Origin: a virus | Lineage: Duplodnaviria > Caudoviricetes | Virus record (IMG/VR): IMGVR_UViG_2563367162_000001 | Span: 1-64,000 of that record | Reading direction: 5' to 3' (one strand) | DNA length: 64,000 nt | Shown here: in pieces, positions 2,915-52,704 of the stretch | Numbering within the stretch: the stretch's first letter is position 1 | How the letters are laid out: each line of letters opens with the position of its first letter | Notes under the pieces: generated by a model | What the model saw: only the letters and a program-made list of their open reading frames with translations | Database searches by the model: none | What the model was told of the DNA's origin: nothing | Position numbers and translations under genes: made by a program

Positions 2915-3128
2915 TTTTCATTGTTTTTTCACCCCATCAAAGCAAAGGCATTTAATCACCATTTAAGCGGTAATTAAATGCCTTTTGAACATCTGCAAAA
3001 AGTGCGGAAAATGTTGCTTTTCAGAGGCATTTTGTCTGCACTTTATTTGCTCAATTCGTAGAAAATCACTATCTTTACATAGTAATTGAGAGGTTGTTTT
3101 GCATCGGTTTATCCCGTTCGCAAACCTT

Positions 3129-3881
3129 TCATGCAACCAGCTTATCAAGCAGGCAAATGATATTTGCCTTTATCTTGCGCCTGTCTCTTTCCCACTCTAT
3201 TTGTTCCATCCCTTTGTCATATTCAGGATAAGGCTTTTCTTTGCCAACGAACTGAAATTTCTTGCATAAGGGGAAAATATAACGGTAAGTTTTCACGCGG
3301 AAAACTTCGTAATCTCCCAACAAATAGCCAATGTTCTGACGCAAATAGCCTGCTTTCTGCACGCTGTTGGTAAATGTCTGTTCGTGCTTCATTTCCCCAG
3401 TTCGAACGTGCCGCAGAAAGCGTGTATAATGAAAGCCGTAATATTTGAAATTGGCCGCTTTGTAGATAGTTCCGCAACCTAAACGACCGTCGGCAAAACT
3501 TTGTACTGCCACGACATTGGCATCCGTCTTACGAATCAGTTTGATGCTGGCGGCAATCAACACAGTTTCTGCGTTCTTTCCGAGACAGTCATCAATCCAC
3601 AGCCGATTTAATTCACACATCCACGCTTTCGGGTTCGGATGGTGGAACAGTTTTGCATTCTGGTTCTTCATGTAACCGTAAACTGCAACGCCGAGGCATT
3701 TGTCTGGTTCATCGGCGCGGAAGATACCGAAATTAAACACTCCAAAACTGCCAAAATTCCATTTATGGGAATAGTGGTGTTCTATCACCATTTGGCGGGC
3801 AAGTTCCTTTTCCACGGGTTTGATAAGCAGGTCGCCGAGCGACGAGGTTTGTTTCAGGACAAACAGATTTTCTTTAATCAT
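3129..3881 (-). CDS. mom: Mom-like (GNAT-fold) DNA adenine modification protein
   Basis: HHYSH, ELNRLW and SFADGRLGCGTIYKAANFKYYG motifs; last gene at the genome end, as in phage Mu. Confidence 0.75.
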   Translation of the reverse strand: MIKENLFVLKQTSSLGDLLIKPVEKELARQMVIEHHYSHKWNFGSFGVFNFGIFRADEPDKCLGVAVYGYMKNQNAKLFHHPNPKAWMCELNRLWIDDCLGKNAETVLIAASIKLIRKTDANVVAVQSFADGRLGCGTIYKAANFKYYGFHYTRFLRHVRTGEMKHEQTFTNSVQKAGYLRQNIGYLLGDYEVFRVKTYRYIFPLCKKFQFVGKEKPYPEYDKGMEQIEWERDRRKIKANIICLLDKLVA

Positions 3882-3947
3882 TCAGCATACTAACAATGTT
3901 TTAATGGTTTATAAATATGGTTTGAGTTATTTTTCGTACTTTTGCAG

Positions 3948-4095
3948 TCCTACCACATACGAGCGGGCTTTCCGCATACACAAAAAAAGCGTCACAACGC
4001 GGTCAAAAGGCATATTAAGCCCCTGACTGTGCGTTGTGGCGCATCTTTGTGTTAGTATGTGGTAGGATACTACTAACAGGTCGGGGGCTTTTTCT
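3948..4095 (+). ncRNA. Candidate structured ncRNA (long stem plus pseudoknot), divergent from mom
   Basis: TACTTTTG -7 promoter box just upstream; TCCTACCACATAC/GTATGTGGTAGGA stem; AAGCCCCTGAC pairs with GTCGGGGGCTT; homolog at 52705. Confidence 0.6.
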
Positions 4096-4114
4096 TTCCC
4101 CCTCTTTCAGGTGT

Positions 4115-4489
4115 CTATCGGTTCAGCAGTTCGTCCACCTGCCGCTTGCATTCGGCGCGGTAGGCTTCAAACGTGCGCAGTTCCTCGGCGTGTTCGGCCG
4201 TGTTATCGCTGTTTGCCAGAATGGCAATCTGGTCGTCGATACTGTAACGCCTGCCGATAAGCCCTGCCACGAACTTGCCGCGGCGGTTTTCGTCGGTGAC
4301 GGTGCGGGCATCGACGGAAATGCGGGTAGAACCGTCGGTTTCCTCACCTGTGTAGGAGTAGCCGCGGGCGGTTTCGCCGCTTTCCTCGTCCACCACCACA
4401 TCGGCGGGGGCTTCGTTCAGATAAAGCAGGTAGCTGTCCGCGTCATACCTTACATACTTCTTTCTTTCAATGTAACTTACTGTGTTCAT
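4115..4489 (-). CDS. Hypothetical phage protein downstream of DGR RT
   Basis: 124-aa ORF in operon with RT. Confidence 0.7.
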   Translation of the reverse strand: MNTVSYIERKKYVRYDADSYLLYLNEAPADVVVDEESGETARGYSYTGEETDGSTRISVDARTVTDENRRGKFVAGLIGRRYSIDDQIAILANSDNTAEHAEELRTFEAYRAECKRQVDELLNR

Positions 4490-4498
4490 TACTCTTTT

Positions 4499-5842
4499 TT
4501 ATTGGTCGGGATCGACTATGCTGTAAAAGCAGCGTTTGCCGTCTGTCCCGATGGGTTGCTTGATTATTTTCGCTGCAACGGGTTCGGTCAGTTCCACGCC
4601 GTCAAGCTGGCGGATAAGGGCTTTTGACCCCGTGAAAGTGATGTGCTTTATCCAAGCCATGACGGGGTTGCCCTCGTCGTCTATCACTTTGCCCTGCTCG
4701 TCCTCCATCTGCTCGTAAATCTCATATTGCAACGTCAGCATTTCACCATCGTATTTCGATTGCGAAACGTCGAAAGCCGTTATATGGATTTCACGGTTCA
4801 GGATGGTGTCGATGTGGTATTTACCACCCGTTAATTTGCCCTGTTTGGGCTTAATGTCACTAAATTTTTTCATACCGAGTATTTTTAATAAATGATTGCT
4901 GTCGCAGTGTTTCATAAAGCCCATGCGTGAAGCCACGCGAAGCCTTATTTCTTCGTCAGGCAGTCCCTTTTTACGCAAAGCGGCCAGTTCCCTGCACAAC
5001 CCCTGTTTGTTGCGTTTGCGGGCAAGGCAGTGGGTGTGGTAGGTCACGTAACCGACGAAATCGATGCCCCGACTTTCCACGGGATAGATTTGGAAGTTGC
5101 TTTTCAGCGTGAGCAGGCGGCTTTCATTCAGGTAATGGTTGATATATACCAGAACGCCGCTTAAATACTCCTTGCTGTCGGAAAGCAGCACTATATCGTC
5201 GGCGTAACGGTAATAGTACCGCACCCCGACGTCTTCCTTTAACAGGTGGTCGAGTTCCGAAAGGTACAGGTTGGCGAAATATTGGGAAATGTAGTTGCCG
5301 ATAGGCACGCCGCTGGCCGAATCTATGATGCCGTCCAGAAGCCAAAGCACGTCGGGGTCTTTCAACTTGCGCCGAATGACCTGTTTGAGTATGCCGTGGT
5401 CGATGGAGGGATAGAACTTGCGCACGTCGATTTTAAGACAGTACCGCGTCCCGTCAGGGTCACGGCGCAGGTCGGTGCGCAACTGCCGAAGCAGCGAGTG
5501 AATACCGCGCCCGCGGATGCAGGCATGGGTGTTCGAGGTGAACTGTGGCGTCCAGACGGGTTCAAGCACCTGCATGATTGCCCACTGTACAACACGGTCA
5601 CGAAAAGGCAGCTTGTAGATTTCGCGGCGTTTAGGTTCGTATTTGACAAACACCTCGTAAGAGGAGGTCGTATAGGTTCGGGTCGTCAGTTCCGCCTGCA
5701 ACTGCCGCAGGTTAGCGTCTAAATCGGCCTCGAACCGTTTAACCTCGTCACGTTTCCTTTTGCCGTTGCTCGCATTGTGGAACGCCTGCAAAAGGTTTTC
5801 CATCGAGCGGATTTGCTCGAACAAGTAACCTTTTCGTTTCAT
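4499..5842 (-). CDS. DGR reverse transcriptase with C-terminal extension
   Basis: PKRREI..LPFRDRVVQ, LKIDVRKFYPSIDH, GVPIGNYISQ, YYRYADD, GIDFVGY; adjacent to a TR/VR pair. Confidence 0.95.
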   Translation of the reverse strand: MKRKGYLFEQIRSMENLLQAFHNASNGKRKRDEVKRFEADLDANLRQLQAELTTRTYTTSSYEVFVKYEPKRREIYKLPFRDRVVQWAIMQVLEPVWTPQFTSNTHACIRGRGIHSLLRQLRTDLRRDPDGTRYCLKIDVRKFYPSIDHGILKQVIRRKLKDPDVLWLLDGIIDSASGVPIGNYISQYFANLYLSELDHLLKEDVGVRYYYRYADDIVLLSDSKEYLSGVLVYINHYLNESRLLTLKSNFQIYPVESRGIDFVGYVTYHTHCLARKRNKQGLCRELAALRKKGLPDEEIRLRVASRMGFMKHCDSNHLLKILGMKKFSDIKPKQGKLTGGKYHIDTILNREIHITAFDVSQSKYDGEMLTLQYEIYEQMEDEQGKVIDDEGNPVMAWIKHITFTGSKALIRQLDGVELTEPVAAKIIKQPIGTDGKRCFYSIVDPDQ

Positions 5843-5993
5843 CGGGTCTTCGGGTCATGGGGTCTATGGGTCTTAAAATCTGCTTTGCATAATCGGGAGC
5901 GGTCGAGGCTTACGCCCTACTGACACCCTTTTTGGCCTGTCATCTTTTGCCGAGGGGCAAGGTTCATTTCCCTGTCGCTTTTGTTTCTTTTCC

Positions 5994-6117
5994 AAAGTAT
6001 AGGGGCGACGAGTAGTTCGCATTCGTAGTCGAAGCTGCGTTGTTCGCATTCGAGTTGGACGCACCTGCGTTCGTGCCATTGTTCACGTTACCGCCAGCAG
6101 CCTGAACGCGCAAACTA
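5994..6117 (-). repeat. DGR template repeat (TR)
   Basis: AAC-rich copy of the 3' end of the target gene; every difference from the VR is at a TR adenine. Confidence 0.95.
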
Positions 6118-6162
6118 ACCACCCACGGGAAATGCAACCTGCCTTTCACTTGAAAGACGATG

Positions 6163-6173
6163 CAAAATTAACA
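6163..6173 (-). promoter_or_regulatory. Bacteroidetes -7 promoter box (TAATTTTG) upstream of TR/RT
   Basis: Matches the TAnnTTTG consensus, about 45 bp upstream of TR. Confidence 0.5.
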
Positions 6174-6305
6174 CTTTAACACCACATGCCCAAAATTCCT
6201 AAAAAATTTCGCCCGCCTAACGGCGGGATTAAAGAAAACCCCGCCGCCATTATCAGCTACATTATTTCTCGGTATGAAAAAATTTCAAAGAACGATGTTT
6301 GTTTT

Positions 6306-6321
6306 CGGGGGCTTCGCCCCG
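6306..6321 (-). promoter_or_regulatory. DGR target-recognition hairpin (GGGGC-GAA-GCCCC) downstream of VR/IMH
   Basis: GC stem with GAA loop just after the natural stop of the target gene; a second hairpin at ~6212-6227. Confidence 0.7.
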
Positions 6322-6338
6322 TGTTCGTTTTTTTCGTC

Positions 6339-7807
6339 TTACCCGATTTGCGGGTCTTCCTCGAAAAAGCAGAGGGGCGACGAGCAGCCCGCATCCGTAG
6401 TCGAAGCCGCGTGGGCGCATACGAGCTGGACGCACCCGCGTCCGTGCCATTGTGCACGCTACCGCCAGCAGCCCGAACGCGCAAACCAGTCTGTGTAGCG
6501 GCGTTTGTCCAGAAATAGTCGCAGTAGTAGGTAGAGGCAGAACCGCCCACAGACGTAGGCATACAACACAGACCCTCGTAGGATTTCTTTATGATATACC
6601 CCTCGCGCTGCGGGCATTCGCACGTCTTACGCATACCCTCACCGATATTTGCAGGGTCGAAAGCAGCATACATGGACTTTGCCACGAACACCTCCGTCTT
6701 TTCGCCTGCCGTTTGTGAAATAGTCAGACCGCGCACCCAACGCCAGAGGTTACCAAAGCCAGCGTTTACGAGGCCGAAAAAAACGGGGACTTTACATTGG
6801 TACACGGCCACGCCGTCGGCGTTCGTCACGGAATAGTCCACAAGTCCTACACCGTCGCCCATTTCAAGCCCCACGCTGGTGGGAATGACGGGATACCAGC
6901 CGTTATAATTCCCCCAATCGGGCATGTTCGTAGCACCCGCGCCAAAACCGCCCTGACGCAGGCCGTTGGCATCAAGCTGGGCGTTGAAAGCGGCCTGCGA
7001 GTTGCGCGTGCCCATGATTATCTCGAAAAGGTATTCCACAACCGCACGGGCGACAAACCAGTTAGCCTCCCACCCCTCGCCGCGTTTGCGGGCATACGTT
7101 CCGAAAGCCGTTGTACTTAATGCCGTGGCGGGCATTCCCAGCATCGTTTTTTGCGGGGCATCGGCCGCCAGCGGGTAATTATCACCCAGTGCATTGCCGT
7201 TGCCGCCACGATAACGGGGGTCGGTGGATATGACGGAACACAGTTTTTGTTCGGTTCTGTCCATCACACCCGCATCAATCCACGAAATGCCGCCTGCGGG
7301 AACGTAGATGCTGTTCTTTCCTTTGATAGGTTGGAACGTGACGGTCTGGATGCGGCGGTTGCCCTCCGTCCAAGTGGTGAAGTAGTGGGCGTTCCAGCAC
7401 CACATGCACTGCCCCATAGTGCCGTCCAGCTTCGCGGGGCTGCCGTCATCAAAACGGGTGCTGTCCGCGGCATCCAGCTTGCGACGCTTGCGGTCGTCCG
7501 TAACCAGATAGCGGCCAAGACCCAATTTGGCAGGCAGTTCCTTTAAGGCCTGCAAAGAGCCGTAATACCCCGCGGCGGTGGGCGTAGCGGCCGTTTCGTC
7601 CCACCAGCGGCCTGCGATGGGGTTGCCTGCCGTCTGGACGGCCTCCTGCAAGTTCATGCGGCGCGTCTCGCCGCTCTCATCGACCACGGCAACCTGCATG
7701 TCCGACATGCTGCCCGTGGCGGCGTCAAGCTCGTTGATGCGCTTGCCGCTCTCAAAAGCCGTCAGAAGCTGGCGGACTTTTTCTTCTTCGTTTGCGTTTA
7801 ATGCCAT
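6339..7807 (-). CDS. DGR target protein (tail fibre/receptor-binding, CLec-like C-terminus) with a 1-nt frameshift in VR
   Basis: GNLWRWV motif; C-terminal VR matches TR; natural end SSPLCFFEEDPQIG* at 6339 lies in a shifted frame. Confidence 0.85.
6366..6488 (-). repeat. DGR variable repeat (VR)
   Basis: Aligns to TR with about 17 substitutions and 1 deletion, all at TR adenines (manual alignment). Confidence 0.95.
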
Positions 7808-7820
7808 TTGAATGATGGTT

Positions 7821-9077
7821 TTAAGTGAATAATAATACGTTTGCGCCAGCCAGCAGAAGCGAGGCATGGCCTGATTTTATCAAAGACGGCCTGACGACCT
7901 CGACCGTAACGGTCTGGTGCAACGCCGTGTTTTCGGTGGGGATGACGTGGACGCGGCTTTTGCCAAGACCCAGCACAACCACCTCGCCGTCGGGTTCGAC
8001 GTCCACGGACTTGCCGTCGGAAAGCCAGAGCACGTTTTGAACGGCAAACTGCGGCAACAGGCTGGCTTTGATGTACTGTTTCACGGGGTTGCCGTAGGTG
8101 ATGCGGCGCGGAGGTTCCACGGTCATGACAAGGGGAATGACGCGCCCCGCGCTGTCGGCCTGTATGGCAAAGATGGTCTGACGCACGGCCGCGATGTCCT
8201 GACGTATTTCCGCGTCGGACTGTTGCAATCCCGTTTTCGTGTCAGTGATACGTTTGCCGAGTACCGTTTCGGCCGCTTCCGCGCGCTGGCGTTCCCCGTC
8301 GATGTTCGTTTGCAGTGTGGCTTCCGCGCCCTTTGCCCTGTCGCTTTCCACCTTGACAGCGGCCGCAATGGCTCTGTCATAAGCAGCGGTGATGTCCTTT
8401 TCAAGCTGTTCAAGCAGTCCAGAAAGGGTTTCGGTGTCGGTGATGCCTTGCAAAAAGGTTTCGATTTCCTGCCAGCGGTTTATCGTGCTGTCCGCAGTAT
8501 CCTTTGCTTCCAGAAAGGTTTTAAGCGTGTTAGCCAAAGCCCACAAAGTGCTGTAATTCGCGCCAAGCGCGGAAAACGTGCTTTCCAGAGAGCCGAAAAC
8601 GGCTGTCGGGTGCAGACGCTTCCGCAGGTGTTCCAGATTGGCGTTGGCCGTGTCGATTTCAGCCTGCTGGTCGCTGTCCGTCTTATGTAGCGCGGCAATT
8701 TCCTTGTCCTGCGCGGCGTCTTTCTTATGGATGTTCTCCACCTCGGCCTCCAGAGCGTCGATTTCTTCCTGCTGCCGTTCGTCAGTGGCTTCCAGTTCCT
8801 CGATGTTCTCAGCGATGTTGTCAAACTGTTCGGCCGAAGACTGCTTGTGCGCGTCATAGTCGCTTTTCAATTCACGGTGCTGCCGTTCCAGCTCCTGCCC
8901 CGCGGTGGCAGCGTATTTGCCGTTTAGCTGTTCAGGCAGTTCCTCTACCTGCGCGATGGGGATTTTACTTTCCTCCTTATGGACGTAGCTGTCGAGCCAG
9001 TCGGCAAACTGTTCCTCCGTCGGATACTTGCCGCGACGGAACCACGCCTTTAACTGTGCGATGCTTCTTATTGGCAT
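7821..9077 (-). CDS. Tail fibre-associated coiled-coil protein with C-terminal Ig-like domain
   Basis: N-terminal LKAWFRRGKYPTEEQFADWLDS typical of Bacteroidetes phage tail proteins; coiled coil; position in tail module. Confidence 0.65.
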   Translation of the reverse strand: MPIRSIAQLKAWFRRGKYPTEEQFADWLDSYVHKEESKIPIAQVEELPEQLNGKYAATAGQELERQHRELKSDYDAHKQSSAEQFDNIAENIEELEATDERQQEEIDALEAEVENIHKKDAAQDKEIAALHKTDSDQQAEIDTANANLEHLRKRLHPTAVFGSLESTFSALGANYSTLWALANTLKTFLEAKDTADSTINRWQEIETFLQGITDTETLSGLLEQLEKDITAAYDRAIAAAVKVESDRAKGAEATLQTNIDGERQRAEAAETVLGKRITDTKTGLQQSDAEIRQDIAAVRQTIFAIQADSAGRVIPLVMTVEPPRRITYGNPVKQYIKASLLPQFAVQNVLWLSDGKSVDVEPDGEVVVLGLGKSRVHVIPTENTALHQTVTVEVVRPSLIKSGHASLLLAGANVLLFT

Positions 9078-9097
9078 TATAGTATTCTTTTATCGGG

Positions 9098-10057
9098 TTA
9101 TCGTACTTTCATGATGTAGGCAAGGGTATAATACGGCGGGCGGTTTTCATGCTGCGCACCCCCACCCGTGGCGTTCGTGTTTCCGAACTGTACCGTCCTG
9201 TCGTGATAAGAGGTAGATCGAGGCGAAGAATTGTTCCCGCCGCCTTTCCATTTGCCGCTGTCCTCCTGCCAAAGGTTCTGCGGGTGGGTGTGGCTCGGCA
9301 TTTCGTTGATGGTGAGGGCGTGTTTCTTCTCGCCGCCCGTGTTGCCGTATTTCTTGTATTCGTCATCGAGGTCGTTATAACCCACGATGAAACGACCGCG
9401 CAGGTCGGGAAGACGGAAGAAGCCGCTTTGCGTGGTGTATCGCGTGCCGTTGTAGTTCACACCTGCGTTGAAAGCTGTGCCGAGGGCTTTGTAAAGTTCG
9501 GGGTATTCGCTGGTCTTCAACATCGCGCCATCGCACAGGGCGTAATTTTCGGGGACTTTAACACCAGCCCACATCTTGACGATGCCCAGCGGCTCGCTGA
9601 CGGAATTTGCCGCGGCGTCAGACTGTTGTTTGGAGAGGTCGGCAATCAGCTTTTCAAGTTCGGCCGACGTCTTCGGTTTCTTGAAGTCCGTCCATTTGAA
9701 ATTTTCACTGCCCACGCCTGCGGCAAGCGTCCGACGCGTGTAGGCTTTCGGGTATTCATACCCCTGCGCGTTCACTGAAACGTCCTCCAGCTTCACGTAC
9801 ATGCCCCCTGAAATGTTGCCGCCCTCCCAGCGCAGAACCTCGCCGTGCGGATAGTCACGCGTCTTGACGAACACATAGCCCGCGGCACGCTGCGTGTCGT
9901 TGTTCGTCAGCTCGCAGCCTGTAAGAATAAGTTTGTCGCCCGCGATATTGCCCAGAGCGGCCACAAGTGCCGTGCCCGCCTGCAACATGTCGAGCGTGTC
10001 GCAGTCAAGCGGAAAATCCTTGTTCGGCTGAGTCAGGAAATTACCTATCGTTTCCAT
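9098..10057 (-). CDS. Tail fibre protein with tail-collar domain
   Basis: PLGIVKMWAG..P..YALCDG, FRLPDLRGRFIVG, HENRPPYYTLAYIMK. Confidence 0.85.
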   Translation of the reverse strand: METIGNFLTQPNKDFPLDCDTLDMLQAGTALVAALGNIAGDKLILTGCELTNNDTQRAAGYVFVKTRDYPHGEVLRWEGGNISGGMYVKLEDVSVNAQGYEYPKAYTRRTLAAGVGSENFKWTDFKKPKTSAELEKLIADLSKQQSDAAANSVSEPLGIVKMWAGVKVPENYALCDGAMLKTSEYPELYKALGTAFNAGVNYNGTRYTTQSGFFRLPDLRGRFIVGYNDLDDEYKKYGNTGGEKKHALTINEMPSHTHPQNLWQEDSGKWKGGGNNSSPRSTSYHDRTVQFGNTNATGGGAQHENRPPYYTLAYIMKVR

Positions 10058-22573: not shown

Positions 22574-22647
22574 TAGCGGGGGCGGGACTCGAACCCGCGA
22601 CTTTGAGGGAATGAACCTCACGAGCTGGCCGTCTGCTCTACCCCGCG
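22574..22647 (-). tRNA. tRNA-Met(CAT), initiator-like, atypical anticodon loop, no encoded CCA
   Basis: CGCGGGGTAGAGCAG..AGCTCG-TGAGG-TTCATTC-CCTCA..GCGGGTTCGAGTCCCGC-CCCCGCTA cloverleaf. Confidence 0.75.
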
Positions 22648-25515: not shown

Positions 25516-26763
25516 ATGGACTTAATCAGTAGCATTAAACAGGCTTTCACGCGGCGCACATACACCGAGGCGGACATGGACAGGCTGATACGGTTTGCCA
25601 AAAGCAAACAGGGGCTTAAACTGACCGCGCAGCTGATGCAGCAGACCGACAGCCTGACAAAGAAAGACATTGCGACATGGCGGCAGGCATGGCAGGCCGC
25701 CATAAGCATAGACACGCCGAACCGCGCGCGGCTGTACGACATCTATACCGACTGCCTCGTGGATCTTCACCTGACGGGATGTATCGGACAGCGGAAAGGA
25801 AAGACGCTGCAAAAGGATTTCCGACTGGTGGGAAAGGACGGAAAGGAAAAGGCGGACGCCACCAAACTGCTGCAAAGGGAATGGTTCAACGATTTCTGCG
25901 ACCTCGCGCTGGACAGCCGTTTCTGGGGGCACAGCCTCATACAGCTGGGCGACATCGTGTCGGACGAGAACGGGATGCGCTTCGAGGGCGTGGAAATTGT
26001 GCCGCGCAAGCACGTGTGTCCTGAATACGGGGTAATTACACCAGAACCCGCCGCCGACTGGCGCACGGGCATACCGTACCGCAACGGGGATTTGTCCCTG
26101 TGGTGCGTGGAGGTGGGAAAGCCCAAAGATTTGGGGCTGCTCCTCAAATGCGCACCCTCCTGCATAAGCAAGAAAAACATGCTGGCGTTCTGGGACATGT
26201 TCGGCGAGATATTCGGCGCGCCCATGCGCGTGGCACGTACCAACACCACCGACGAGGCCGAACGCCGACGCATTGAGGGGTCGCTGGACAGAATGGGTGC
26301 GGCGTTCTGGGCGTTGTTCCCCGAGGGCACGGACATCGAAATTAAGGAAAGCAGCCGCGGGGATGCTTACAACGTCTATGACAAGCGCGTGGACAGGTGC
26401 AACAGCGAACTGTCCAAAGGCACGCTGATGCAGACAATGACCATCGACAGCGGTTCGTCCCTGTCACAGTCGGAAACGCACCTCGAAATTTTCGAGGACG
26501 TGGTAAAGGCCGATGCAAAGATGGTGGCGAACGTCGTAAACGACAAGCTGCTGCCACTTATGGCGCGGCACGGTTTCCCCGTGCAGGGGCTGACGTTCCA
26601 ATGGGACGACGCGGCATCGTTCAGCCCCGCCGAAAGGCGCGAGGAGGAACGCCTGCTGCTGGAATATTACGAGATTGACCCGCAGTATTTCGTCGATAAC
26701 TACAACATACCCATCACGGGCGTGCGGCAAGCAAAAACACAGCCTGACGCTTTTTTCGGGTAA
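25516..26763 (+). CDS. Portal protein (Mu gp29/DUF935)
   Basis: LGLL, FGEIFGAPMR, NSELSK..L.QTMT motifs. Confidence 0.88.
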   Translation: MDLISSIKQAFTRRTYTEADMDRLIRFAKSKQGLKLTAQLMQQTDSLTKKDIATWRQAWQAAISIDTPNRARLYDIYTDCLVDLHLTGCIGQRKGKTLQKDFRLVGKDGKEKADATKLLQREWFNDFCDLALDSRFWGHSLIQLGDIVSDENGMRFEGVEIVPRKHVCPEYGVITPEPAADWRTGIPYRNGDLSLWCVEVGKPKDLGLLLKCAPSCISKKNMLAFWDMFGEIFGAPMRVARTNTTDEAERRRIEGSLDRMGAAFWALFPEGTDIEIKESSRGDAYNVYDKRVDRCNSELSKGTLMQTMTIDSGSSLSQSETHLEIFEDVVKADAKMVANVVNDKLLPLMARHGFPVQGLTFQWDDAASFSPAERREEERLLLEYYEIDPQYFVDNYNIPITGVRQAKTQPDAFFG

Positions 26764-26774
26764 GCCCCACGGGT

Positions 26775-28316
26775 GTGGGGCTGCGCAGGGGGTACAAGGC
26801 TTTCAACGCAGCGTTGCGTTCGCTTTACGGGCGTGAACTGCTGACACTGGCCGAGGGCGGACGGCCATTTGACTTCGACGACGCGCTGTTTGACGAGGCG
26901 GCAAAAACGGTGTACCAGAACGGGGGATTTGATGTTTCATGCCTGACAGAACCGCAGGCGCAGGCTCTCATTAACGAGACGCTGCGCGTGATTGACATGG
27001 CCGTCGGCAACGCGCTGCCCCATGAAGTGCCCGACACCATACGTTACGCCCTCGAAAACAACGCTTTTGTGTTTTCGGGATTTAAGACATTCCACGCGCT
27101 GCGTGAAGTGGGGCTGTCCATGCTCACGGAAAAGGGCGACATCAAACCGTTCGGGGAGTTCCTGACGGACGTAAAGCGGATAAACGCGCAGTACAACCAC
27201 AATTACCTGTACGCGGAATACAACCACGCGCTCGGGGCGGCGCAGATGGCGGCCAAATGGCACGACTTCGAGCAGGACGGCGACCGTTACAACTTGCAGT
27301 ACCGCACGGCGGGCGACGACAAGGTGCGCGAGGAACACGCCATACTCAACGGCACGACACTGCCGCCGTCCGACCCGTTCTGGGACATGTTTCTGCCGCC
27401 AAACGGCTGGAACTGCCGATGCACGGCCGTACAGGTGCGAAAGAACAAATATCCCGCATCCGACCCAGAACTGGCCATGAAGCGCGGGCAGAACTGCACG
27501 GAGGGGGCGAAAAAGGCCATTTTCAGGTATAACGCTGGAAAGTCGCTGAAACTGTTCCCGCCAAAGCACCCGTATTTCAAGGCACCCGCAGAGGCAAAGC
27601 AGGTCATCGAACAGGTGACGCAGGAAGCCATCAGGGAGAAACGCATCCGCGACATGGTCGAGGAACTGCCCGACAACCTGACGCCTGAAGAAAAGCAGGC
27701 CATTGCCGCGCACAACCTTGAAATAGAAGAAGCCCTGAAAATAACAAAGGGAAAACCTATGACCGTCGAGCAGGCAGACCAGCAGCACGCCAATCCGAAC
27801 TATGGCAAAAAATACGAATACAGCATCAACTGCCAGACCTGCGCCCCCGCTTATGTATTGCGGCTGATGGGCTTTAACGTGACCGCAAAGGCAAACACCA
27901 AAAACTCGTTGTCGGAATACCTGTCACGCCAGCGTTCGTTCGAGGCATGGAAGAACACGGACGGGTCGCCAGCCGTGCCGACGCTGACATACGACTGGAT
28001 GATAGCAAAGGGATATAAACAGATGTCGAAAAAAAGATATGCTGAATATTTCGAGGAATGCTGCAAGGAGACGGGCGTATATATACTGACTATCGGCTGG
28101 AAAGGCGGAGGGGGACACGCAACTGTCCTGCAACGTTTTGAAGACGGTACATTGAAGTATATAGAACCGCAGGTTTACAGTGAGAGAAGTGGGGCGAAAA
28201 GGAGCATTGACGAACTGTGCGAAAGCGGGGCGACAAAACCCTACCCCAAAAGAGGCGTGCTGCGTGTTGATAACAAACTGTTCGACACTAAATTTGCATC
28301 AATCTTTGACAAGTAA
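26775..28316 (+). CDS. MuF (gp30) minor head protein with C-terminal papain-fold toxin domain
   Basis: YRTAGDDKVREEH and PPNGWNCRC MuF motifs; C-terminal NCQTC..GGGHAT..YIEPQ. Confidence 0.8.
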   Translation: MGLRRGYKAFNAALRSLYGRELLTLAEGGRPFDFDDALFDEAAKTVYQNGGFDVSCLTEPQAQALINETLRVIDMAVGNALPHEVPDTIRYALENNAFVFSGFKTFHALREVGLSMLTEKGDIKPFGEFLTDVKRINAQYNHNYLYAEYNHALGAAQMAAKWHDFEQDGDRYNLQYRTAGDDKVREEHAILNGTTLPPSDPFWDMFLPPNGWNCRCTAVQVRKNKYPASDPELAMKRGQNCTEGAKKAIFRYNAGKSLKLFPPKHPYFKAPAEAKQVIEQVTQEAIREKRIRDMVEELPDNLTPEEKQAIAAHNLEIEEALKITKGKPMTVEQADQQHANPNYGKKYEYSINCQTCAPAYVLRLMGFNVTAKANTKNSLSEYLSRQRSFEAWKNTDGSPAVPTLTYDWMIAKGYKQMSKKRYAEYFEECCKETGVYILTIGWKGGGGHATVLQRFEDGTLKYIEPQVYSERSGAKRSIDELCESGATKPYPKRGVLRVDNKLFDTKFASIFDK

Positions 28317-32831: not shown

Positions 32832-33680
32832 TTATTTACCCTCCTTTTGTAAAGCCCAAATAGCGCGTTTTACACGGCGCAAATCACATTCGCAGTCCTC
32901 CACTATGCGGTTGATGGCGTTCGTGGCTGTAATGCCGTTTGCCACGCAAATGGCGGCTATATCTTCACTGTTCACCACCTGCAACTCCACGAACTTGCGC
33001 CCCATGCGGCTGTAAATTTCCTCGTACCCCTTGCGTTTGGTGCGCAGCCCTTTTTTAATGCGCTTCTCCAGAAAATTGGTGGCGCAAAGGATAATGCCGC
33101 AGTGTCCCTCCAGCTGGTTGTAAAGACTGATAAAGAAATAAAGCACCTGATCCGAAAGTTTGTCGGCTTCGTCAAGCACCACAAGCGGGTTTTCCTTGCG
33201 TTTGAGCGTGTCGATGATGTCGTCCATCATATCCGACACCGTGCTGCCCGTGAAGTCCACGCCCATACATTGCAGCAACTTGCCCATGAACGTGCGGCGG
33301 TTCCAATATTCAGAGCAGCAGAGGTGGTAAACATGGCGGTGCGTAGCGGCGTAGTTCTTTATGGCTTCCGTCTTACCACAACCAGCGTCACCCGTAACGG
33401 CCAGCACAAGGCTGTCCTCACGGGCATTGTCAAGCAGAAAGCCCATGCGGCTGTACGCGCGTGTTTCAGCGATGCGCCACGCTTTTGCCTCGTGCCCCGT
33501 CTGGGCGGCTATCGTGCGCCACATTTCCTCGCTGATGGTGTCCCAATCACCTGCCAGCACCTTGCTGACAGTGGCCGCGCTTACGCCGTTCATACTGTTG
33601 GCCGCCTTGTTCTGGCTGCCTTTCTGCACGCAGTAGTCTTTAAGACGTGCGGCAATCTGTTGTTTTTCGTCCTTTTGCAT
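32832..33680 (-). CDS. MuB-like AAA+ transposition ATPase
   Basis: N-terminal HTH, GDAGCGKT, VLDEADKL; follows the transposase. Confidence 0.88.
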   Translation of the reverse strand: MQKDEKQQIAARLKDYCVQKGSQNKAANSMNGVSAATVSKVLAGDWDTISEEMWRTIAAQTGHEAKAWRIAETRAYSRMGFLLDNAREDSLVLAVTGDAGCGKTEAIKNYAATHRHVYHLCCSEYWNRRTFMGKLLQCMGVDFTGSTVSDMMDDIIDTLKRKENPLVVLDEADKLSDQVLYFFISLYNQLEGHCGIILCATNFLEKRIKKGLRTKRKGYEEIYSRMGRKFVELQVVNSEDIAAICVANGITATNAINRIVEDCECDLRRVKRAIWALQKEGK

Positions 33681-33691
33681 CTTATTTCGTT

Positions 33692-35695
33692 TTAGAAAAT
33701 TGAATAATCGTCTTTATCCGAAGCGGCCGCGCCCTGCGGTATCAGGGGCACTTCCACCGTCTTGACCTCTACCGCCTCCACGTCAATGGCATTCAGGCGT
33801 TTCTGCGCTTTCGGCAGTTTGTGCTGCCCGCGGCTGTCACATATTAGCAGGCGGTTGAGGATATTGTCCTGTGCAATAACGGGCTGCGCCTTTTCATAAG
33901 CCAGCGCGAGGCGTTCCGTTACATGTTGTTCCAGATGCCTGTTGAAGTCCTGCACCTGTTGAAGTGCGGCCGCGTCGCCCTCCTTGCGGTCGGCAAGTGC
34001 CATCGGCTGCACGTATTTTTCTGTCAGCATGAAGCGCAGCGTGCCGTCTTCACTTACCGCCAGCACCTCATGCAGATTATCGGGGTCGTATTTCACCGTC
34101 CAGCGTCTGCCTGCATACTGACGGAAACGCACGTCAAAACAGTCATAATCGCGTTTCATGCCCAAAATAGTAGGCCGCAGGCCGCTGCCCTCAATGGCGT
34201 TCTTGTGGCCTGTTTCCGCACCGAAATTCAGCAGGTATTGTTCGCGGCTTAACGGCAGGCGGCGTTCCGCGGGCAGGTTCTCCATAAGTTTGCGGAACTG
34301 TTCTACCTTGCGCTGGCGTTCCATCTGCATGATGCGGTCTATCTGTTCACGCACACCCGCTTCGTCGGGGAAACTGTGCCGCAGCATGTTCAGGGCTTCA
34401 CTGTTTGGCTGCTTGCTGGGGTCGGTGGTTATGCCAAAGCCCGACCAGTTGTTGAACAGCTTGCAGTATGTCTTATTCAGGTAGCCGAAATAAGGCTCTA
34501 TCACTTTGGCCTTTGCATTCTTTACGCGGGCAGGCGTCAGTTTGTCGCCCATCACGTTATAAAGCGGGGTCATGGCTTTAATGCCGTAGTGGTCACACTG
34601 TATCTGGTTTGCCCGAAGCATGACCCCGAAAAGTTCCTCGCTGTGTTTGGCCGCGTTGCGCAGGGCTTCGGCTATAAGTTCGGGCGTTTCGTGTGTACCT
34701 ACGGCATAGCCTATCGGGTAATTTATACAGGGGTCAAGCACCACCTCCAGCGTCAGGCGGTTATGGTATGTCGTAACGCTGCGGCCTTTGCTGTCGGTTT
34801 TCGTTGTCTGGTAAAGCAGTTCCACGTCCCAACCGTCAAGCGTCCACATGAGGAACGGAGCAGTCGGTCTGGTGCGCTTCACCTGCATGGATTTCTTGTT
34901 GCGGAAATTCGTACTGCCCAAACGGCCTGCCGATGTTACCAAGTCCAATTTTTCACGCCATTTTGCCACCGTGCTGGGGGTTATCGCTTTCCAGCCCTGC
35001 TGCTTCGCCACGGCATTGTACAAATTGGCTATCGCCACATTGTCGAGGTTGTTGTGGTGGCCGATAAGCTGCACAAGCACGCTTTCTTTTACATCGTCGT
35101 CCACCTTTGCGGCGTTGATATTCTGGAACTTCTTGCTAATGAAACACACATACCCATCATGCAGGTATTCGTTAAACTTACGTTGCAGGCGGCGGTCGCT
35201 TTCAGGCAGGGAGTGCGGGAAACGGTCGGCCAGACGTGGCAGGGCTGCCGCGGCTTTGCGCCAGAACTCCGTCTTGTTCAGGCGCGGTTTACTCTGACGC
35301 AGGCGGTGGCTGTTGCTGGTTTCAATACACTGCCGAAAAGCGTTCATGATGGCGCAGTTGTTTGAATATTCCGCCTGCTTTTCGGTGGTGAGGTGGCGGC
35401 CGTCGGCCAGCACATAGTCCGCGTAAAACTGCATGGCCTGTCCGTCGGGGGTGATTGTGTCCATAAAAGGCTTGCTGTCGGCTTTTTCCTGTAAGTCGGG
35501 GTAACGGCGGTAAACCTCCGTGCGATATTTCAGTGGCAGGCTTTCAACGGCAAACAGCGCGGGTGTCCCATAGCAGGCACGTTGCACCTGCTTGATTTGC
35601 TTACGACGGCGCAGGTTTTTCACCGTGTCTTCCGTCATAATACCAGCAATCAGCTCGGTGTGACTTATACAAAGCGTGTTACCGTAATATTCCAT
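33692..35695 (-). CDS. MuA-like DDE transposase
   Basis: WTLDGWD, QCDHY, AKVIEPYF (D-D-E); 667 aa. Confidence 0.88.
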   Translation of the reverse strand: MEYYGNTLCISHTELIAGIMTEDTVKNLRRRKQIKQVQRACYGTPALFAVESLPLKYRTEVYRRYPDLQEKADSKPFMDTITPDGQAMQFYADYVLADGRHLTTEKQAEYSNNCAIMNAFRQCIETSNSHRLRQSKPRLNKTEFWRKAAAALPRLADRFPHSLPESDRRLQRKFNEYLHDGYVCFISKKFQNINAAKVDDDVKESVLVQLIGHHNNLDNVAIANLYNAVAKQQGWKAITPSTVAKWREKLDLVTSAGRLGSTNFRNKKSMQVKRTRPTAPFLMWTLDGWDVELLYQTTKTDSKGRSVTTYHNRLTLEVVLDPCINYPIGYAVGTHETPELIAEALRNAAKHSEELFGVMLRANQIQCDHYGIKAMTPLYNVMGDKLTPARVKNAKAKVIEPYFGYLNKTYCKLFNNWSGFGITTDPSKQPNSEALNMLRHSFPDEAGVREQIDRIMQMERQRKVEQFRKLMENLPAERRLPLSREQYLLNFGAETGHKNAIEGSGLRPTILGMKRDYDCFDVRFRQYAGRRWTVKYDPDNLHEVLAVSEDGTLRFMLTEKYVQPMALADRKEGDAAALQQVQDFNRHLEQHVTERLALAYEKAQPVIAQDNILNRLLICDSRGQHKLPKAQKRLNAIDVEAVEVKTVEVPLIPQGAAASDKDDYSIF

Positions 35696-38453: not shown

Positions 38454-39227
38454 TTACGTCCCTATATCCTGTTCATGATTGCTAAAAATTGTTTTCCTGT
38501 TCTCCATCCGGTAACTTGTTCCCGACAGCCTTATTATCTCACAGCAATAGAGCAGCCTGTCAAGCAGTGCTGCCGTGACCGCTTCATCCTCCAAAGGTTC
38601 CAGCCACTGTACGAGTGCCTTGTTTGCCGTGATGACAAGTGATGTCCTTTCCTGGAACTCATTCACCAGTTTGAAAAGCAAAAGAGCGTCTTCTCTTTTC
38701 AGGGGAAAGAGTGTGGCATCGTCAATGGCCAGCAGCTGTGCCTTCATTATGCGTTTGTAAGTTTTCATGGCATGGCGGGAGAGATCCTTTGTCTTCAAGC
38801 AGGTGAGCAGCTCCTCCAGTGTCACCATGTATGCCTTGTACCCCGCCTTCACGGCTTCATGGACAAGCCCGGCGGCAATGAAGGTCTTGCCTGTTCCGGA
38901 ACCGCCTGTCAGAAGAATGTTGTATGCCTGTCCCACCCATACCAGCTCACGCAATTCGCGCAGCCTCCTTGCGTCCATGCCGTCCGTCCTTTCAAAGTCA
39001 TATGTGTCCAGGTCATACCTTGGGGGAAGTCCCGCCGCCTTGAGCCGGCACAGGTAATTTTTTCTCTCCCTGTCGCGGACCTCCCGTTCCAGACATGCAA
39101 GCAGGAACTCCGGATAAGTCGGCTGCTTTTCCTGCGCCTCGTGAAGTATCGCTCCCATGTGTTCCGCCAGGTTCGGCAGCTTCAGGCGCCTTGCATATTC
39201 CACCAGTTCCTTCCTACGCTTTGTCAT
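38454..39227 (-). CDS. istB: IS21 helper ATPase
   Basis: [26 protein letters not shown]. Confidence 0.93.
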
Positions 39228-40776
39228 GGCCCGCAAAGATTTCGTTATACGACCGCATCGCCCCTGACTGTGCCCCCGGATAACCGTCCGGATATGCCGT
39301 TCCCTTATCCTGTCCCCGGCTCCCGCACACATGCTCACACAGGCTCCTGACAGACTCGCCGTTGTAGATGCCCTTGTCAAGACATATCCGCACAGCCTCT
39401 ATCAGGGTACTTTTGTCAAATCCCGGAATGATCCGCAGGATCACTTCCAGATTGTCCTTGTAATAGCGCTCCTTCCTTCTTTTGAGATTCTCCATCCATA
39501 AGGCGACCTCCCGGTTTCCGGACACATAAATAAGGATGCGTTCTGCCAGCTTGCCGGCTCCGGTATTTCTCGGTTTCCTGTGCCCTTCGTCATAGACCGT
39601 CTTTCCTTTCCTGGTGCAGAGCTCGTGCCTGCCCACCAGCTTCCCCGTGCTTTTGCTGTAAAGCTCCACATGCCCGTCAGCCTCCTGAAGCCAGAGCGTC
39701 GTCTCCCCGCTGCGGTAGGTTCCGCACGGAACGCTGTAGTAATTCCCCCGGTATTGCACGGTATTGTCCTTGCGCACATGGTATTCCCTCATCTCCTCCT
39801 GTGGCGGCTTCGGGATGCCATGGTAAGGCGTGAGATACCCCTGTTCCATCGCGAACTCCTCACTCGGGACCAGATGTGTCGTTCCGTGCACCTTTCCGTT
39901 CCCCGTCCTTTCAAGCCACAGGAGGGCCTGCCCGTTCAGCGTGTCCGCATCGTGGTACACGCGGGCCGCCAGAAAGTTCTCCTTCACGTATTTCACGACA
40001 TTCTCGACCTTCCCCTTCGACTCGGGATCGGCCTTGTGGCAGAACACCGGCTGGAAATGCTGCTCCCTGACGAATGCCTGGAACTTTCTGGTCAGTATCA
40101 GGTCGCCCAGGTTCTCCCGCGCTATGAGCACCCTGTCCTGGTCATAGACGATCTTTTCGGGCTTGCCCCCGAAATACGCGAATGCCAGCTCGTGCGCATA
40201 CACCGCCAGCTCCGTGTCGAAGGGCCTGCGGCTGAAATGCACAAACTTGTAGCGTGAACGTGCCAGCACGATGGCGAAAAAATACACCTTCGTGCTTCCG
40301 CCGTTCCGTGCCGGCATCCATTTTTCACCGAAATCCGCCTGGGCGTACTCCCCGTAAGGGGTGTCCGGCAGCTTCTCATAATCACGGCGTATGCGCGCCT
40401 CCGACTTTTTCCCGATTCCGTACTTCAGGCGTACCCTCTCCACAAAATTGAATACGGTCTTGTCACACACAACCGGAAAATCCGGATAACACTCCCTGAG
40501 CCAGTCATGCATCCGGGCGGATGAGATGTACGGGTATTCTTCCAGCATGCCCCGTACGTATTCCTCATACTTTCCCAGTTTCAGCTCGTACTTGCGGTGC
40601 GCACTCTGCTTTCTGACGAACTCTTCCCGGCTCATCTGCAGATACCTCCGTACGGTGCTCCGGTCCACACCCAGATATTTTCCGGTCTGTGTCTTGTTGA
40701 GTCCTTTGGACTGAAGTTCTCTTACCTTGTACCACATATACAGTTTGTCTTTAAAAAATCGGCTCATTGTTTCCAT
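39214..40776 (-). CDS. istA: IS21 transposase
   Basis: N-terminal [24 protein letters not shown]. Confidence 0.93.
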
Positions 40777-51501: not shown

Positions 51502-52344
51502 TCAGGCGGCCCCGGGCATCTCCCTGTAGAGCATGATATCCGTATAGGACGAAGCGTAATTCATCCGTGCGGCGAACGTGGACCGGCCCGCCCCCCTGAA
51601 AGGATTGCCGCTTCCGGGATGCTCCTCCATCCAGCTGCAGAAATCCAGTATGGGCGACTTGGACGAGGTGAAATAGACAAACGGGTGTCCCTTCAGGACA
51701 AGCAGGACATCCAGATAGTCCTTCAGCTTCCAGTCCATTTGGTATGTGCTGGTGTCCGTGGCCATGTAGGGGGGATCGACAAGGAACACGACGTCCGGCG
51801 AGCAGCCGTATTTGTCCGCCAGCACCTTGTAATCGCAGCAGACCACTTCAAGGCCGTCAAGATAGCCCCCGCAGCGGTAGTCGGAAAGGCGCAGGTTGTT
51901 GTAGAAGCTCTGCTTCCCGAGCTCCTCCAGGTTCAGGGCGTATTTCCCGGAAAACAGCAGGGAGGATGAGAGGGTGATGTAATCCACCGCTCCTGTTTGT
52001 TCCTCCTGCCGGATGCGTTCGAGAAATGCCGCACGCAGGCTTCCGGTTATCATCTTATGGCGGGGATGTTCCCGTGCCATATCCCGCAGGTCCGCCAGCA
52101 GACGGTTGGTCCGGCCGATATTCTCCAGACGCCCGCGGTAGTTGTCGTGGTCATTGTAAATGACCGTCGCGTCAGGGCGTTCCCGTTTGGTGATGTGCGC
52201 CAGCAGGCCGGAACCGCCGAACAGGTCGACAAAGACCGTCTTGTCACCGAAACGTTCCAGTACCTTTCTGAATTCTGACGCGAACATGCGTTTCTGCCCC
52301 ACGAAAGGAAGCGGGGCCTGGCTGTAAATGTTAGTCTTTTCCAT
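51502..52344 (-). CDS. D12-class N6-adenine DNA methyltransferase (orphan)
   Basis: PLPFVGQKR, VDLFGGSG, DPPY. Confidence 0.88.
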   Translation of the reverse strand: MEKTNIYSQAPLPFVGQKRMFASEFRKVLERFGDKTVFVDLFGGSGLLAHITKRERPDATVIYNDHDNYRGRLENIGRTNRLLADLRDMAREHPRHKMITGSLRAAFLERIRQEEQTGAVDYITLSSSLLFSGKYALNLEELGKQSFYNNLRLSDYRCGGYLDGLEVVCCDYKVLADKYGCSPDVVFLVDPPYMATDTSTYQMDWKLKDYLDVLLVLKGHPFVYFTSSKSPILDFCSWMEEHPGSGNPFRGAGRSTFAARMNYASSYTDIMLYREMPGAA

Positions 52345-52435
52345 TATATAATCAGTTTGTCGTGAGATATAAGTGTTTGTATTTCCGGCACAAAGTTCCG
52401 CACTTCCTGCCATGAAAGCAAAAAACAGGCGCCAC

Positions 52436-52678
52436 TTATACTGCATGGAGCGTACACTCCTTCTTGAAACGTCCGATAATCTCGTAGATTTTCCGTTCCG
52501 AAACACCATGCCTCACCGACAGGGCGGCGACGCAGTAGGTGACCTTGTCACCCTGAAGCCGCATACGTTCATACTCCTTGTACAGGTCGAGATACCTGCA
52601 GTCATCCGGCTTGAAACCCATCGCCCTCAGGCGTTCAAGAACCTCCCTGTTAAAATTTAGAATCTCAAATAATGTCAT
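52436..52678 (-). CDS. Small HTH protein upstream of the methylase
   Basis: ..HGVSERKIYEII HTH-like. Confidence 0.65.
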   Translation of the reverse strand: MTLFEILNFNREVLERLRAMGFKPDDCRYLDLYKEYERMRLQGDKVTYCVAALSVRHGVSERKIYEIIGRFKKECTLHAV

Positions 52679-52704
52679 AACGAATATTTTCTTAACTTTG
52701 CAAA

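Follow-up and report, generated by a model that had tools for sequence, protein, structure and literature searches.

A pseudoknot-bearing small-RNA family beside DNA adenine-modification genes in Bacteroidales phages and a conjugative element

In F-like plasmids the antisense RNA FinP covers the mapped leader of traJ; it consists of two simple stem-loops and needs FinO. The lambda RNA OOP overlaps the end of the cII coding region, and in pT181 and pIP501 attenuation proceeds through mapped alternative folds of the leader. Control of the mom gene of phage Mu by C, Com and Dam/OxyR is a matter of proteins and of methylation-sensitive repression, and we know of no small RNA that takes part in it. 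To our knowledge Bacteroidales are without the classical RNA chaperones, and few regulatory RNAs with a known function have come to our notice there. Here we analyse a stretch of 64,000 nucleotides (hereafter the window, positions 1 to 64,000 of the 87.6-kb provirus record IMGVR_UViG_2563367162_000001), which carries two copies of one structured element: copy A, beside a Mom-family DNA modification gene, and copy B, beside a D12-class adenine methylase gene. Our analysis indicates that both belong to a structured small-RNA family that is real, new, widespread and well supported, and that is found in Hankyphage-type phages and related elements. The setting of copy A recalls that of Mu mom, in that a Mu-type transposable phage carries at its right end a DNA adenine-modification gene under special control, with an activator of the Mor/C family nearby. 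What differs from Mu is that an RNA gene lies in the control region, and that the same RNA occurs beside D12 methylases and in a conjugative element.

The homology of the two copies, which a first-pass annotation of the window had proposed, is borne out by their shared tail and by covariance-model scores. A 19-nt tail motif occurs twice in the window, where 0.02 occurrences are expected, and these two are the only ones in the whole 87.6-kb record; a covariance model built without copy A gives copy A 69.7 bits and copy B 117.7 bits and finds no further plus-strand match in the window. Both copies fold more stably than shuffled sequence, with z-scores of -6.26 (copy A) and -5.68 (copy B), and in neither case does any of 200 shuffles fold as well. 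A search for further copies of the P1 arms in the window returned only the arms themselves. The features listed at the outset, namely a TAnnTTTG promoter, an interrupted stem, a pairing between the loop and a downstream sequence and a 3' tail, are all present in the sequence of both copies, and the copies do lie in different mobile elements, A in the Mu-like prophage and B in the conjugative element. The ends of the element reach slightly further than first drawn, to the C-runs at 4098-4102 and 52843-52846. The fold as first described also needs correcting, in that the loop-tail pairing has two competitors, the top of helix P3 and a small apical stem.

We regard it as very probable that the two copies are both complete small-RNA genes, some 125-150 nt in length and composed of a -7 promoter, a three-helix rod (P1, P2 and P3, with an optional side hairpin) and a pseudoknot terminator before a U-run. 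We take TAnnTTTG to be the Bacteroidetes -7 promoter box, and our box-to-start-site spacing is an assumption of the same kind; the box of copy B is the sole strict TAnnTTTG on either strand within its 3 kb. Four segments matter for what follows: segment a, at the 5' side of the apical loop, the C-rich loop segment b, the G-rich tail c, and a C-run d beyond the T-run. Coordinates for both copies are collected in Table 1.

Relatives were gathered from Bacteroidales phage and genome contigs, and the family counts given below are among the matches listed. An exact scan for the tail motif returned at least 105 stretches in viral contigs and at least 120 in species-representative genomes, and of the first 100 genome loci, 77 gave a full-length plus-strand match, scoring 64.8 bits or more, to a covariance model (R1) built from 29 relatives. 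After de-duplication there are at least 128 unique RNAs with a promoter box, the box being required by construction, and these form at least 89 clusters at 94% identity; three loci that are remnants or chance matches (L124, L134 and L141) were excluded from the 89 clusters and kept in the neighbour counts over 128 loci. Judged by record titles the hosts are Bacteroides, Phocaeicola, Prevotella, Segatella, Hoylesella, Alistipes, Parabacteroides, Butyricimonas, Muribaculaceae and others, a list that includes some probably misbinned contigs. Samples drawn without regard to the motif also contained R1 matches, in 6 of 151 genomes at the level of the order and in 13 of 151 at that of the family; the reference genome, with its two copies, is part of both counts. 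Since the loci are mostly relatives of one phage lineage, locus counts do not represent independent events. The P1 helix falls into sequence classes of the types GCCAATCA, TCTCACTTA, CTCTTACCTAC and CCTACCACATAC (alignments A2, A3 and A9), which reassort with two N-terminal types of the neighbouring Mor-like protein (MK[VI]IE... and MTLFE...), and the P3 sequence varies even among close relatives. Two genome records each hold two diverged copies of the RNA, one of Bacteroides finegoldii (G001:C1:2054636-2054768 and 4776460-4776594) and one of Segatella salivae (G002:C1:2130754-2130876 and 2571377-2571506).

The stems of this family covary strongly. In a model-based alignment of 89 sequences, 97.4% of 3101 cells hold standard pairs, as against 74.6% after shuffling and 39-45% with slid partners. 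Compensatory changes on both sides are found at 12 of 12 pairs of P1 and 13 of 13 pairs of P3, and the covariation score of 0.651 (against 0.213) is reached by none of 500 shuffles. A second alignment of 97 sequences, 93 of them distinct, gives the same structural picture. Fitting the two alignments to a model made from relatives introduces a bias toward the structure, and it is the slid controls and a plain MAFFT alignment that argue that the pairing signal is real. The covariation first read from the two window copies could not be proved by those two alone; it is the family alignment that shows it. P2 stands outside the formal count, and it forms in individual folds with differing sequences (ACACAAA with TTTGTGT, AACCAAAA with TTTTGGTT, ACGTATA with TATACGT).

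The pairing of loop segment b with tail c, a helix of 10 bp, is equally well conserved, with 99.5% of cells paired in the 97-sequence alignment. Three of its ten pairs change in compensatory fashion (G-C to A-U at two positions, in six sequences each, and C-G to U-A once), and six more vary on one side, with C-to-U changes that keep a G-U pair. Because the harvest was anchored on the tail, the best evidence for the pseudoknot comes from members found by the model. The most divergent of these, L242, L243, L244 and L257, fell below the E-value cut of alignment A10 and were read by eye. In L242, where both sides have changed, loop GCCTCCGCTG faces tail CAGCGGAGGC; the corresponding loop and tail are GCCCTCGGC and GCCGAGGGC in L243, GCCCTCAGT and GCTGGGGGC in L244, and GTCCCCGGCC and GGTCGGGGAC in L257. 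Six sequences with a CT-type tail (GGCTGGGGGC or AGCTGGGGGC) carry the loop CCCCCAG, and in L053 and L150 the loop change is present and the matching tail change absent. The loop-tail pseudoknot proposed at first reading is real, both its sides co-varying across the family. As predicted from sequence, tail helix and T-run together would provide the stable GC-rich helix directly before a U-run by which intrinsic terminators are recognized. Unlike in those terminators, the 5' strand of the helix here is the apical loop of a 13-17 bp hairpin some 50-60 nt upstream, which makes the terminator helix a pseudoknot rather than a simple hairpin, and an unusual architecture.

Several features bear on which strand encodes the RNA. 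In a set of 61 sequences the rod is more stable on the plus strand in 54, copy A being an exception, and G-U pairs number 230 on the plus strand against 113 on the other; over the table of the 97-sequence alignment, wobble pairs add up to 294 of 3241 cells. Such pairs favour the plus strand because they would be A-C mismatches on the other. Of the 25 model-found loci, 24 carry a strict -7 box immediately ahead of P1, the four most divergent among them, and a T-run of at least four follows the tail in 91 of 93 distinct relatives. Wobble pairs, promoter box and T-run thus all favour an RNA encoded on the plus strand.

The family appears to be undescribed. A comparison with Rfam had been suggested at the outset, with the D12-methyl and Bacteroidetes motifs in view, and it matched no family: with Rfam 15 at gathering thresholds a tRNA alone passes in the whole window, and with E up to 10 the two 3-kb loci yield five chance-level matches, none on the plus strand of the element. 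Just one of these overlaps the element; it belongs to a microRNA model, runs on the minus strand and scores 19.3 bits, where 89 is the cut-off. The families tested include D12-methyl, the Bacteroidales and Bacteroides motifs, 6S, c4 and others, and none fits. With the D12-methyl and Bacteroidales motifs the element shares its setting, a structured RNA near D12 methylase genes of Bacteroidetes, but it scores below the gathering threshold of every family. Megablast of window positions 3100-6000 against deposited phages gave no match, and the 21 deposited phage records that contain the sequence have no feature annotated at the RNA site. Full-text literature searches returned no mention of this RNA. 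Passages of two papers (PMC6199706, PMC12135933) describe Hankyphage as among the most widespread phages of human gut Bacteroides, and those passages name no small RNA; the RNA is likewise unmentioned in passages of a preprint on Bacteroides diversity-generating retroelements (bioRxiv 10.1101/2024.11.15.621889) and of a survey of structured RNAs in the human microbiome (PMC8040213), whose Table S1 of 3161 candidates may include the motif.

What lies around the RNA? A distant BLAST search finds relatives of copy B in Bacteroides phage p00 (Hankyphage) and its kin. In p00 the RNA occupies about 40,553-40,688 on the minus strand, in an intergenic region at the right end of the phage. On one side lies a gene for a 161-residue DUF4376 protein, which follows the reverse transcriptase (RT) gene of the diversity-generating retroelement (DGR); on the other side come a gene for an 80-residue protein and then a thymidylate synthase and an N6 methyltransferase gene at the phage right end. 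DUF4376 is a candidate tail-fibre chaperone. The 80-residue proteins are Mor-like, 26 of 27 touching the Pfam Mor family at E up to 1, with a best value of 2.9e-05. Pfam tallies over 60 unique viral loci and the window place DUF4376 as the first downstream gene in 44 of 58 and RVT_1 as the second in 44 of 50, and among 121 upstream open reading frames they count 45 D12 methylases, 43 thymidylate synthases, 3 Mom proteins, 3 amidases and 2 holins. Home-made hidden Markov models were applied to all 128 unique loci, at least 2.5 kb of flank being needed for a locus to count. Upstream (73 loci) they find a Mor-like gene in 62 and a methylase or Mom in 60; downstream (76 loci) they find an RT in 54 and none in 22. 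The 25 loci found by the model, with 1.5-kb flanks, have a methylase or Mom in 21, Mor in 18 and an RT in 11. A DNA adenine-modification gene is the most constant neighbour of the RNA, and the RT is not constant. The covariance model and the tabulation of neighbours that the first-pass annotation had called for have thereby yielded a set of relatives in which the proposed linkage to divergent methylase and Mom genes held. Four loci have no Mor-like gene and a modification gene abutting the RNA, a D12 methylase in L240, L243 and L259 and Mom in L244. Copy B retains the RNA, the Mor-like gene and the methylase, has no RT, and sits in what ParA and a type IV secretion coupling protein mark as a conjugative element; its other neighbours there (ParA, fimbrillin, Fic, a PBECR5 protein and the coupling protein) are beside none of the other 127 unique RNAs.

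The geometry of this arrangement is tight. In the loci displayed, 23-24 nt separate the end of the -7 box from the Mor ATG, and in the Mor-less loci L240, L243, L244 and L259 the methylase or Mom ATG lies 21-24 nt from the box; in general the first start codon of the divergent operon is about 15-24 nt from the box, and in copy B the Mor-like ATG is 14 nt away. Such short spacing implies that the upstream promoter region of the RNA overlaps the start of the divergent gene. On the opposite strand a strict -7 box, sought within the RNA gene and up to 200 nt after it, occurs in at most 4 of 89 representatives per 10-nt bin, in a scan blind to activator-dependent or non-consensus promoters. If there is no consensus promoter on that strand, transcripts reaching the modification genes would cross the RNA gene in antisense and meet its promoter head-on. 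They would also meet a second feature. The A-run before P3 is at least four long in 82 of 93 sequences and at least five long in 67, and its complement, read after P3 on the opposite strand, gives what looks like an intrinsic terminator.

From the opposite-strand terminator, the head-on promoter and the antisense overlap we arrive at a model that we put forward tentatively, giving it somewhat less than an even chance: the RNA gene would be an antisense and promoter-interference gate that restrains potentially harmful modification genes. It would stand at the mouth of the right-end modification operon, whether this comprises a Mor-like activator, ThyA and a D12 methylase, the methylase alone, or Mom. 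Occupancy of the RNA promoter would interfere with head-on transcription into the operon, the terminator formed by P3 and the complement of the A-run would stop transcripts heading for the modification genes, and the very stable, fully complementary RNA would act in antisense on the operon transcript. In phages the gate would in addition cap the late/DGR operon, and a lytic or transfer programme would override it. The opposite sign is equally compatible with this layout, in that pairing with the RNA could prevent the opposite-strand terminator from forming.

A number of observations weigh against such a gate. The antisense leader through the RNA gene is deduced by exclusion. Measured against what is expected of a cis-antisense RNA, its own -7 box is conserved, the overlap with the other strand follows from that same exclusion, and the RNA libraries consist of contigs that carry no strand. 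RNA libraries from isolates and from metatranscriptomes (four runs, as contigs, with DNA carry-over possible) contain the 2-kb Hankyphage stretch, in a form that gives neither strand, ends nor level. In a size-fractionated library the contig that covers most of the RNA has a word depth of 41, where its neighbours have 163 and 430. Two of the 25 model-found loci, L242 and L256, have no phage-like neighbour, and the association with modification genes may reflect shared descent of one lineage. In copy A the Mom ATG is 55 nt from the -7 box and not about 20 nt. Pairing between the 5' half of the RNA and the Mor start is not general: when each locus is ranked against 56-300 control windows, the Mor start reaches the best 1% at 10 loci out of 95 and the best 5% at 13, and the median percentile is 0.48. 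Finally, a conserved C-run past the terminator is left unexplained by the gate. In library X18 one contig ends at L007:4344 and the next begins at 4408, and both the Mor ATG (4385) and the position at which the RNA is predicted to begin (about 4361) fall within the gap; an RNA 5' end or termination on the other strand would fit this gap, and we count it neither for nor against.

Other routes to the Mor start were tried and set aside. Pairing in trans between RNA and Mor start gives a mean of -16.3 kcal/mol for cognate partners, against -15.6 for non-cognate and -15.1 (standard deviation 3.8) for shuffled ones, and a direct repeat between the 5' part of the RNA and the region upstream of its promoter exceeds z of 3 in 24 of 96 pairs, with a median z of 0.6. 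In the p00 lineage there is a 26-nt near-repeat by which the 5' part of the RNA is complementary to Mor from about -13 to +14, with a duplex of about -24.7 kcal/mol; most other lineages are without it.

Could the RNA instead act elsewhere? It may be a 'moron' small RNA with its own promoter that acts in trans, either on a protein or on targets in the host or in a competitor (for instance as a decoy, or for anti-defence or exclusion), or it may be controlled by the neighbouring Mor-like activator, after the fashion of divergent sRNA/regulator pairs, its site being merely permissive. We think this unlikely, and still the best of the alternatives to the gate. It would account for an autonomous promoter-terminator cassette oriented against both flanking operons, for persistence where the RT is missing (22 of 76 loci) and in two orphan contexts, for the few conserved P1 classes that reassort with Mor types, and for RNA ends that are both buried in helices and would make for a stable RNA. 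It does not account for the head-to-head spacing, which is kept tight whatever the first gene of the modification operon is and which a permissive site would not need; moreover, no conserved long single-stranded seed is evident except the short linker UUAACAGG, and no target was found.

The competition within the apical loop raises another alternative. A 4-bp apical stem a:b (GGGY with GCCC) uses the same C residues as the loop-tail helix b:c, and the last pairs of the pseudoknot also compete with the top of P3. The stem pairs in 93.8% of cells, with both-side changes at three of its four pairs, in only four cells, and with exceptions in L247, L248, L251 and L256; in copy A the alternative local partner of segment b is the GGC at 4009-4011. 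Rough energies of the alternative folds are -65.3 versus -75.0 for copy A and -51.3 versus -61.9 for copy B, about 10 kcal/mol apart before any pseudoknot penalty. Beyond the T-run, a C-run (CCCCCG, often then A) stands 10-25 nt downstream in 85 of 89 representatives, the search extending to 30 nt from the T-run; among random windows the share is 6% (106 of 1780). The C-run frequently forms the loop of a small hairpin whose arms covary (of the type ATCCCT-CCCCCGA-AGGGAT), and the base after it tracks tail position 2, being G in 68 of the 84 CC tails with a C-run and A in 5 of 6 CT tails. This suggests that the C-run is a fourth partner for the G-rich tail, outside the predicted RNA, and it may serve a read-through form or an opposite-strand transcript. 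As mutually exclusive helices with covariation go, b:c is strong, a:b modest and c:d suggestive, so that a bistable design is possible from the modelled folds. In the full form of this idea, the element would be a terminator switch in which a:b with a complete P3 opposes b:c, a factor chooses between stopping at the U-run, which yields the short RNA, and reading through, and d pairs with the tail once transcription has gone past it; such transcripts would extend in antisense into the candidate tail-fibre chaperone, RT and DGR genes in the phage and toward parA in the conjugative element. The exclusive helices, the conserved C-run with its tracking base and two folds of roughly equal energy before the pseudoknot penalty speak for such a switch. 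However, segment d comes after the U-run and cannot be a classical antiterminator, the a:b exceptions are awkward for it, no conserved core resembling a ligand pocket and no sensor was identified, and the covariation of d may stem from one clade and cannot discriminate between strands. We consider the switch rather improbable. We judge just as cautiously a bolder proposal, which we would not expect to hold, namely that the RNA represents a novel class of RNA gate that a globally common gut phage and conjugative elements share, built as a four-segment G5/C5 switch (a GGG, b C5, c G5, d C5) whose pseudoknot and opposite-strand terminators would gate late or transfer transcription into an anti-restriction operon on a signal. 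If true, one RNA gene would time the self-protection of the element's DNA.

A simpler possibility, and to our mind quite improbable, is that the element is a mere bidirectional terminator or insulator between operons and that the RNA itself has no function. P3 with the A-run would indeed read as a hairpin and T-run on the other strand, the plus strand has its T-run after the tail, and in the phage the element sits exactly at the end of the late operon. Yet an insulator would not explain why a consensus promoter is conserved, why there is covariation at every pair counted in P1 and P2, helices that neither terminator hairpin includes, why the wobble pairs are specific to the plus strand, or why the element is kept in copy B, where there is no convergent gene; nor would it need long-range covariation between loop and tail. 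Least of all do we believe in an accessory DGR RNA or a retron-like template for the adjacent reverse transcriptase, since, for all that the RT is so often the second downstream gene and that a DGR RT whose pair of template repeat (TR) and variable repeat (VR) is proven lies 400 nt away from copy A, the RNA is convergent with the RT and not upstream of it, 22 of 76 loci have no RT, copy B has none in a record whose whole 87.6 kb holds a single RT, and the DGR already has its TR next to the RT. A retron msr-msd RNA was rejected as a candidate, as it would be co-directional with and just upstream of a retron RT and the RT here is of DGR type; so was a DGR template RNA, as TR and VR lie elsewhere and the only direct repeats in 3900-9200 are the two halves of the TR/VR pair, which means that nothing there repeats the RNA element.

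Table 1. Positions of the RNA elements, their parts and nearby genes (window coordinates unless a locus or phage is named)
Feature	Position	Strand	Remark
Copy A, whole element	~3937-4102	+	including downstream C-run
Copy A -7 box TACTTTTG	3937-3944	+	Bacteroidetes-type promoter box
Copy A P1, 14 bp	3947-3960 with 4055-4068	+	fold
Copy A small side hairpin P1a	3963-3975	+	fold
Copy A P2	3978-3984 with 4046-4052	+	fold
Copy A A-run	3982-3988	+	overlaps 3' end of P2 5' strand, reaches P3; final four As (3985-3988) unpaired
Copy A P3	3989-4005 with 4024-4042	+	fold
Copy A rod P1-P2-P3	3947-4068	+	fold and family covariation
Copy A apical loop segment b GCCCCTGACT	4019-4028	+	complementary to tail c
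Copy A 3' tail c GGTCGGGGGC	4079-4088	+	pairs with loop b
Copy A T-run	4089-4093	+	directly 3' of tail; with tail, putative pseudoknot-type terminator
Copy A C-run (segment d)	4098-4102	+	beyond T-run
Mom-family DNA modification gene	3129-3881	-	Pfam Mom 5.3e-59; PHROG Mom-like; divergent from copy A
124-residue protein gene	4115-4489	-	convergent with copy A; last gene of late/DGR operon
DGR reverse transcriptase	4499-5842	-	RVT_1 6.8e-19; TR/VR pair nearby
DGR template repeat (TR)	5994-6115		
DGR variable repeat (VR)	6366-6486		
tRNA gene	22574-22647	-	inside prophage
Portal_Mu	25516-26763		prophage
MuF head protein	26775-28316		prophage
MuB-like ATPase	32832-33680		prophage
667-residue protein gene	33692-35695		adjoins MuB-like ATPase
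istA/istB pair, IS21 type	38454-40776		
Type IV secretion coupling protein	44740-46344		conjugative element
Copy B, whole element	~52693-52848	+	including downstream C-run
Copy B -7 box TAACTTTG	52693-52700	+	Bacteroidetes-type box
Copy B P1	52705-52716 with 52788-52799	+	fold
Copy B P2	52718-52724 with 52781-52787	+	fold
Copy B A-run	52725-52731	+	between P2 and P3
Copy B P3	52732-52744 with 52763-52777	+	fold
Copy B apical stem	52748-52751 with 52756-52759	+	fold
Copy B rod	52705-52799	+	fold
Copy B apical loop segment b GCCCCCGGTT	52756-52765	+	complementary to tail
Copy B tail c GGCCGGGGGC	52813-52822	+	pairs with loop b
Copy B T-run	52823-52826	+	directly 3' of tail
Copy B segment d, CCCCGG	52843-52848	+	beyond T-run; C-run 52843-52846
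80-residue Mor-family helix-turn-helix gene	52436-52678	-	phrog_17790 2.3e-24; divergent from copy B
D12-class N6-adenine DNA methyltransferase	51502-52509	-	PF02086 3.7e-07; phrog_56; second gene of divergent operon
ParA-type ATPase	53146-53967	+	AAA_31 9.2e-45; co-directional, 320 nt downstream of copy B
AT-rich spacer	52830-53146		copy B to parA
p00-lineage near-repeat	L007:4362-4410 and L007:4330-4358		= p00 ~40,690-40,740

The rest of the window shows what kind of elements house the two copies. The Mu-type prophage is recognized by Portal_Mu, MuF, the MuB-like ATPase and a tape-measure protein, and it carries the DGR (RT, TR and VR) and Mom as well. TR and VR differ only where the template coding (minus) strand has A, and VR lies within the 3' part of a gene for a 536-residue tail protein. 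The 124-residue protein encoded next to copy A has no family match in Pfam and PHROG searches, and its homologues hold the same position in 10 other loci. The MuF head protein comes as a fusion with a papain-fold toxin domain, a glutamine deamidase (Pfam Gln_amidase 1.3e-19), and the tRNA gene inside the prophage is the sole Rfam match in the window. The istA/istB pair stands between the prophage and the conjugative element; this IS21 pair supplies the one rve-domain gene that the record contains, and the 667-residue protein gene next to the MuB-like ATPase has no Pfam match. The conjugative element comprises the coupling protein, the PBECR5 protein, the methylase, the Mor-like gene, ParA, fimbrillin and Fic. 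In the AT-rich spacer ahead of parA, words resembling AAAGGTATA recur and a small GC hairpin encloses an A8 run; the spacer may be a partition or operator site.

In Hankyphage the control region of the thymidylate-synthase/methylase/Mom module has a strongly covarying RNA as a fixed part, and this RNA is reused in a conjugative element, which points to RNA-based control of anti-restriction DNA modification in Bacteroidales. Among described systems one likeness is to FinP and traJ, where again a small structured RNA with its own promoter lies opposite the leader of an activator gene that heads an operon of a mobile element, and is thought to hold that operon off. In contrast to FinP, the overlap proposed here is deduced rather than mapped, the predicted shape is a long rod that ends in a pseudoknot terminator, and neither sequence nor Rfam relates the two. 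With OOP, pT181 and pIP501 the element has in common a short RNA that is convergent to the end of a phage operon or runs against a terminator-bearing leader, with complementarity as the presumed mode of action. While OOP overlaps the coding end of its neighbour, the candidate tail-fibre chaperone gene here stops about 23-30 nt beyond the RNA end; the mapped alternative leader folds of pT181 and pIP501 set those systems apart as well.

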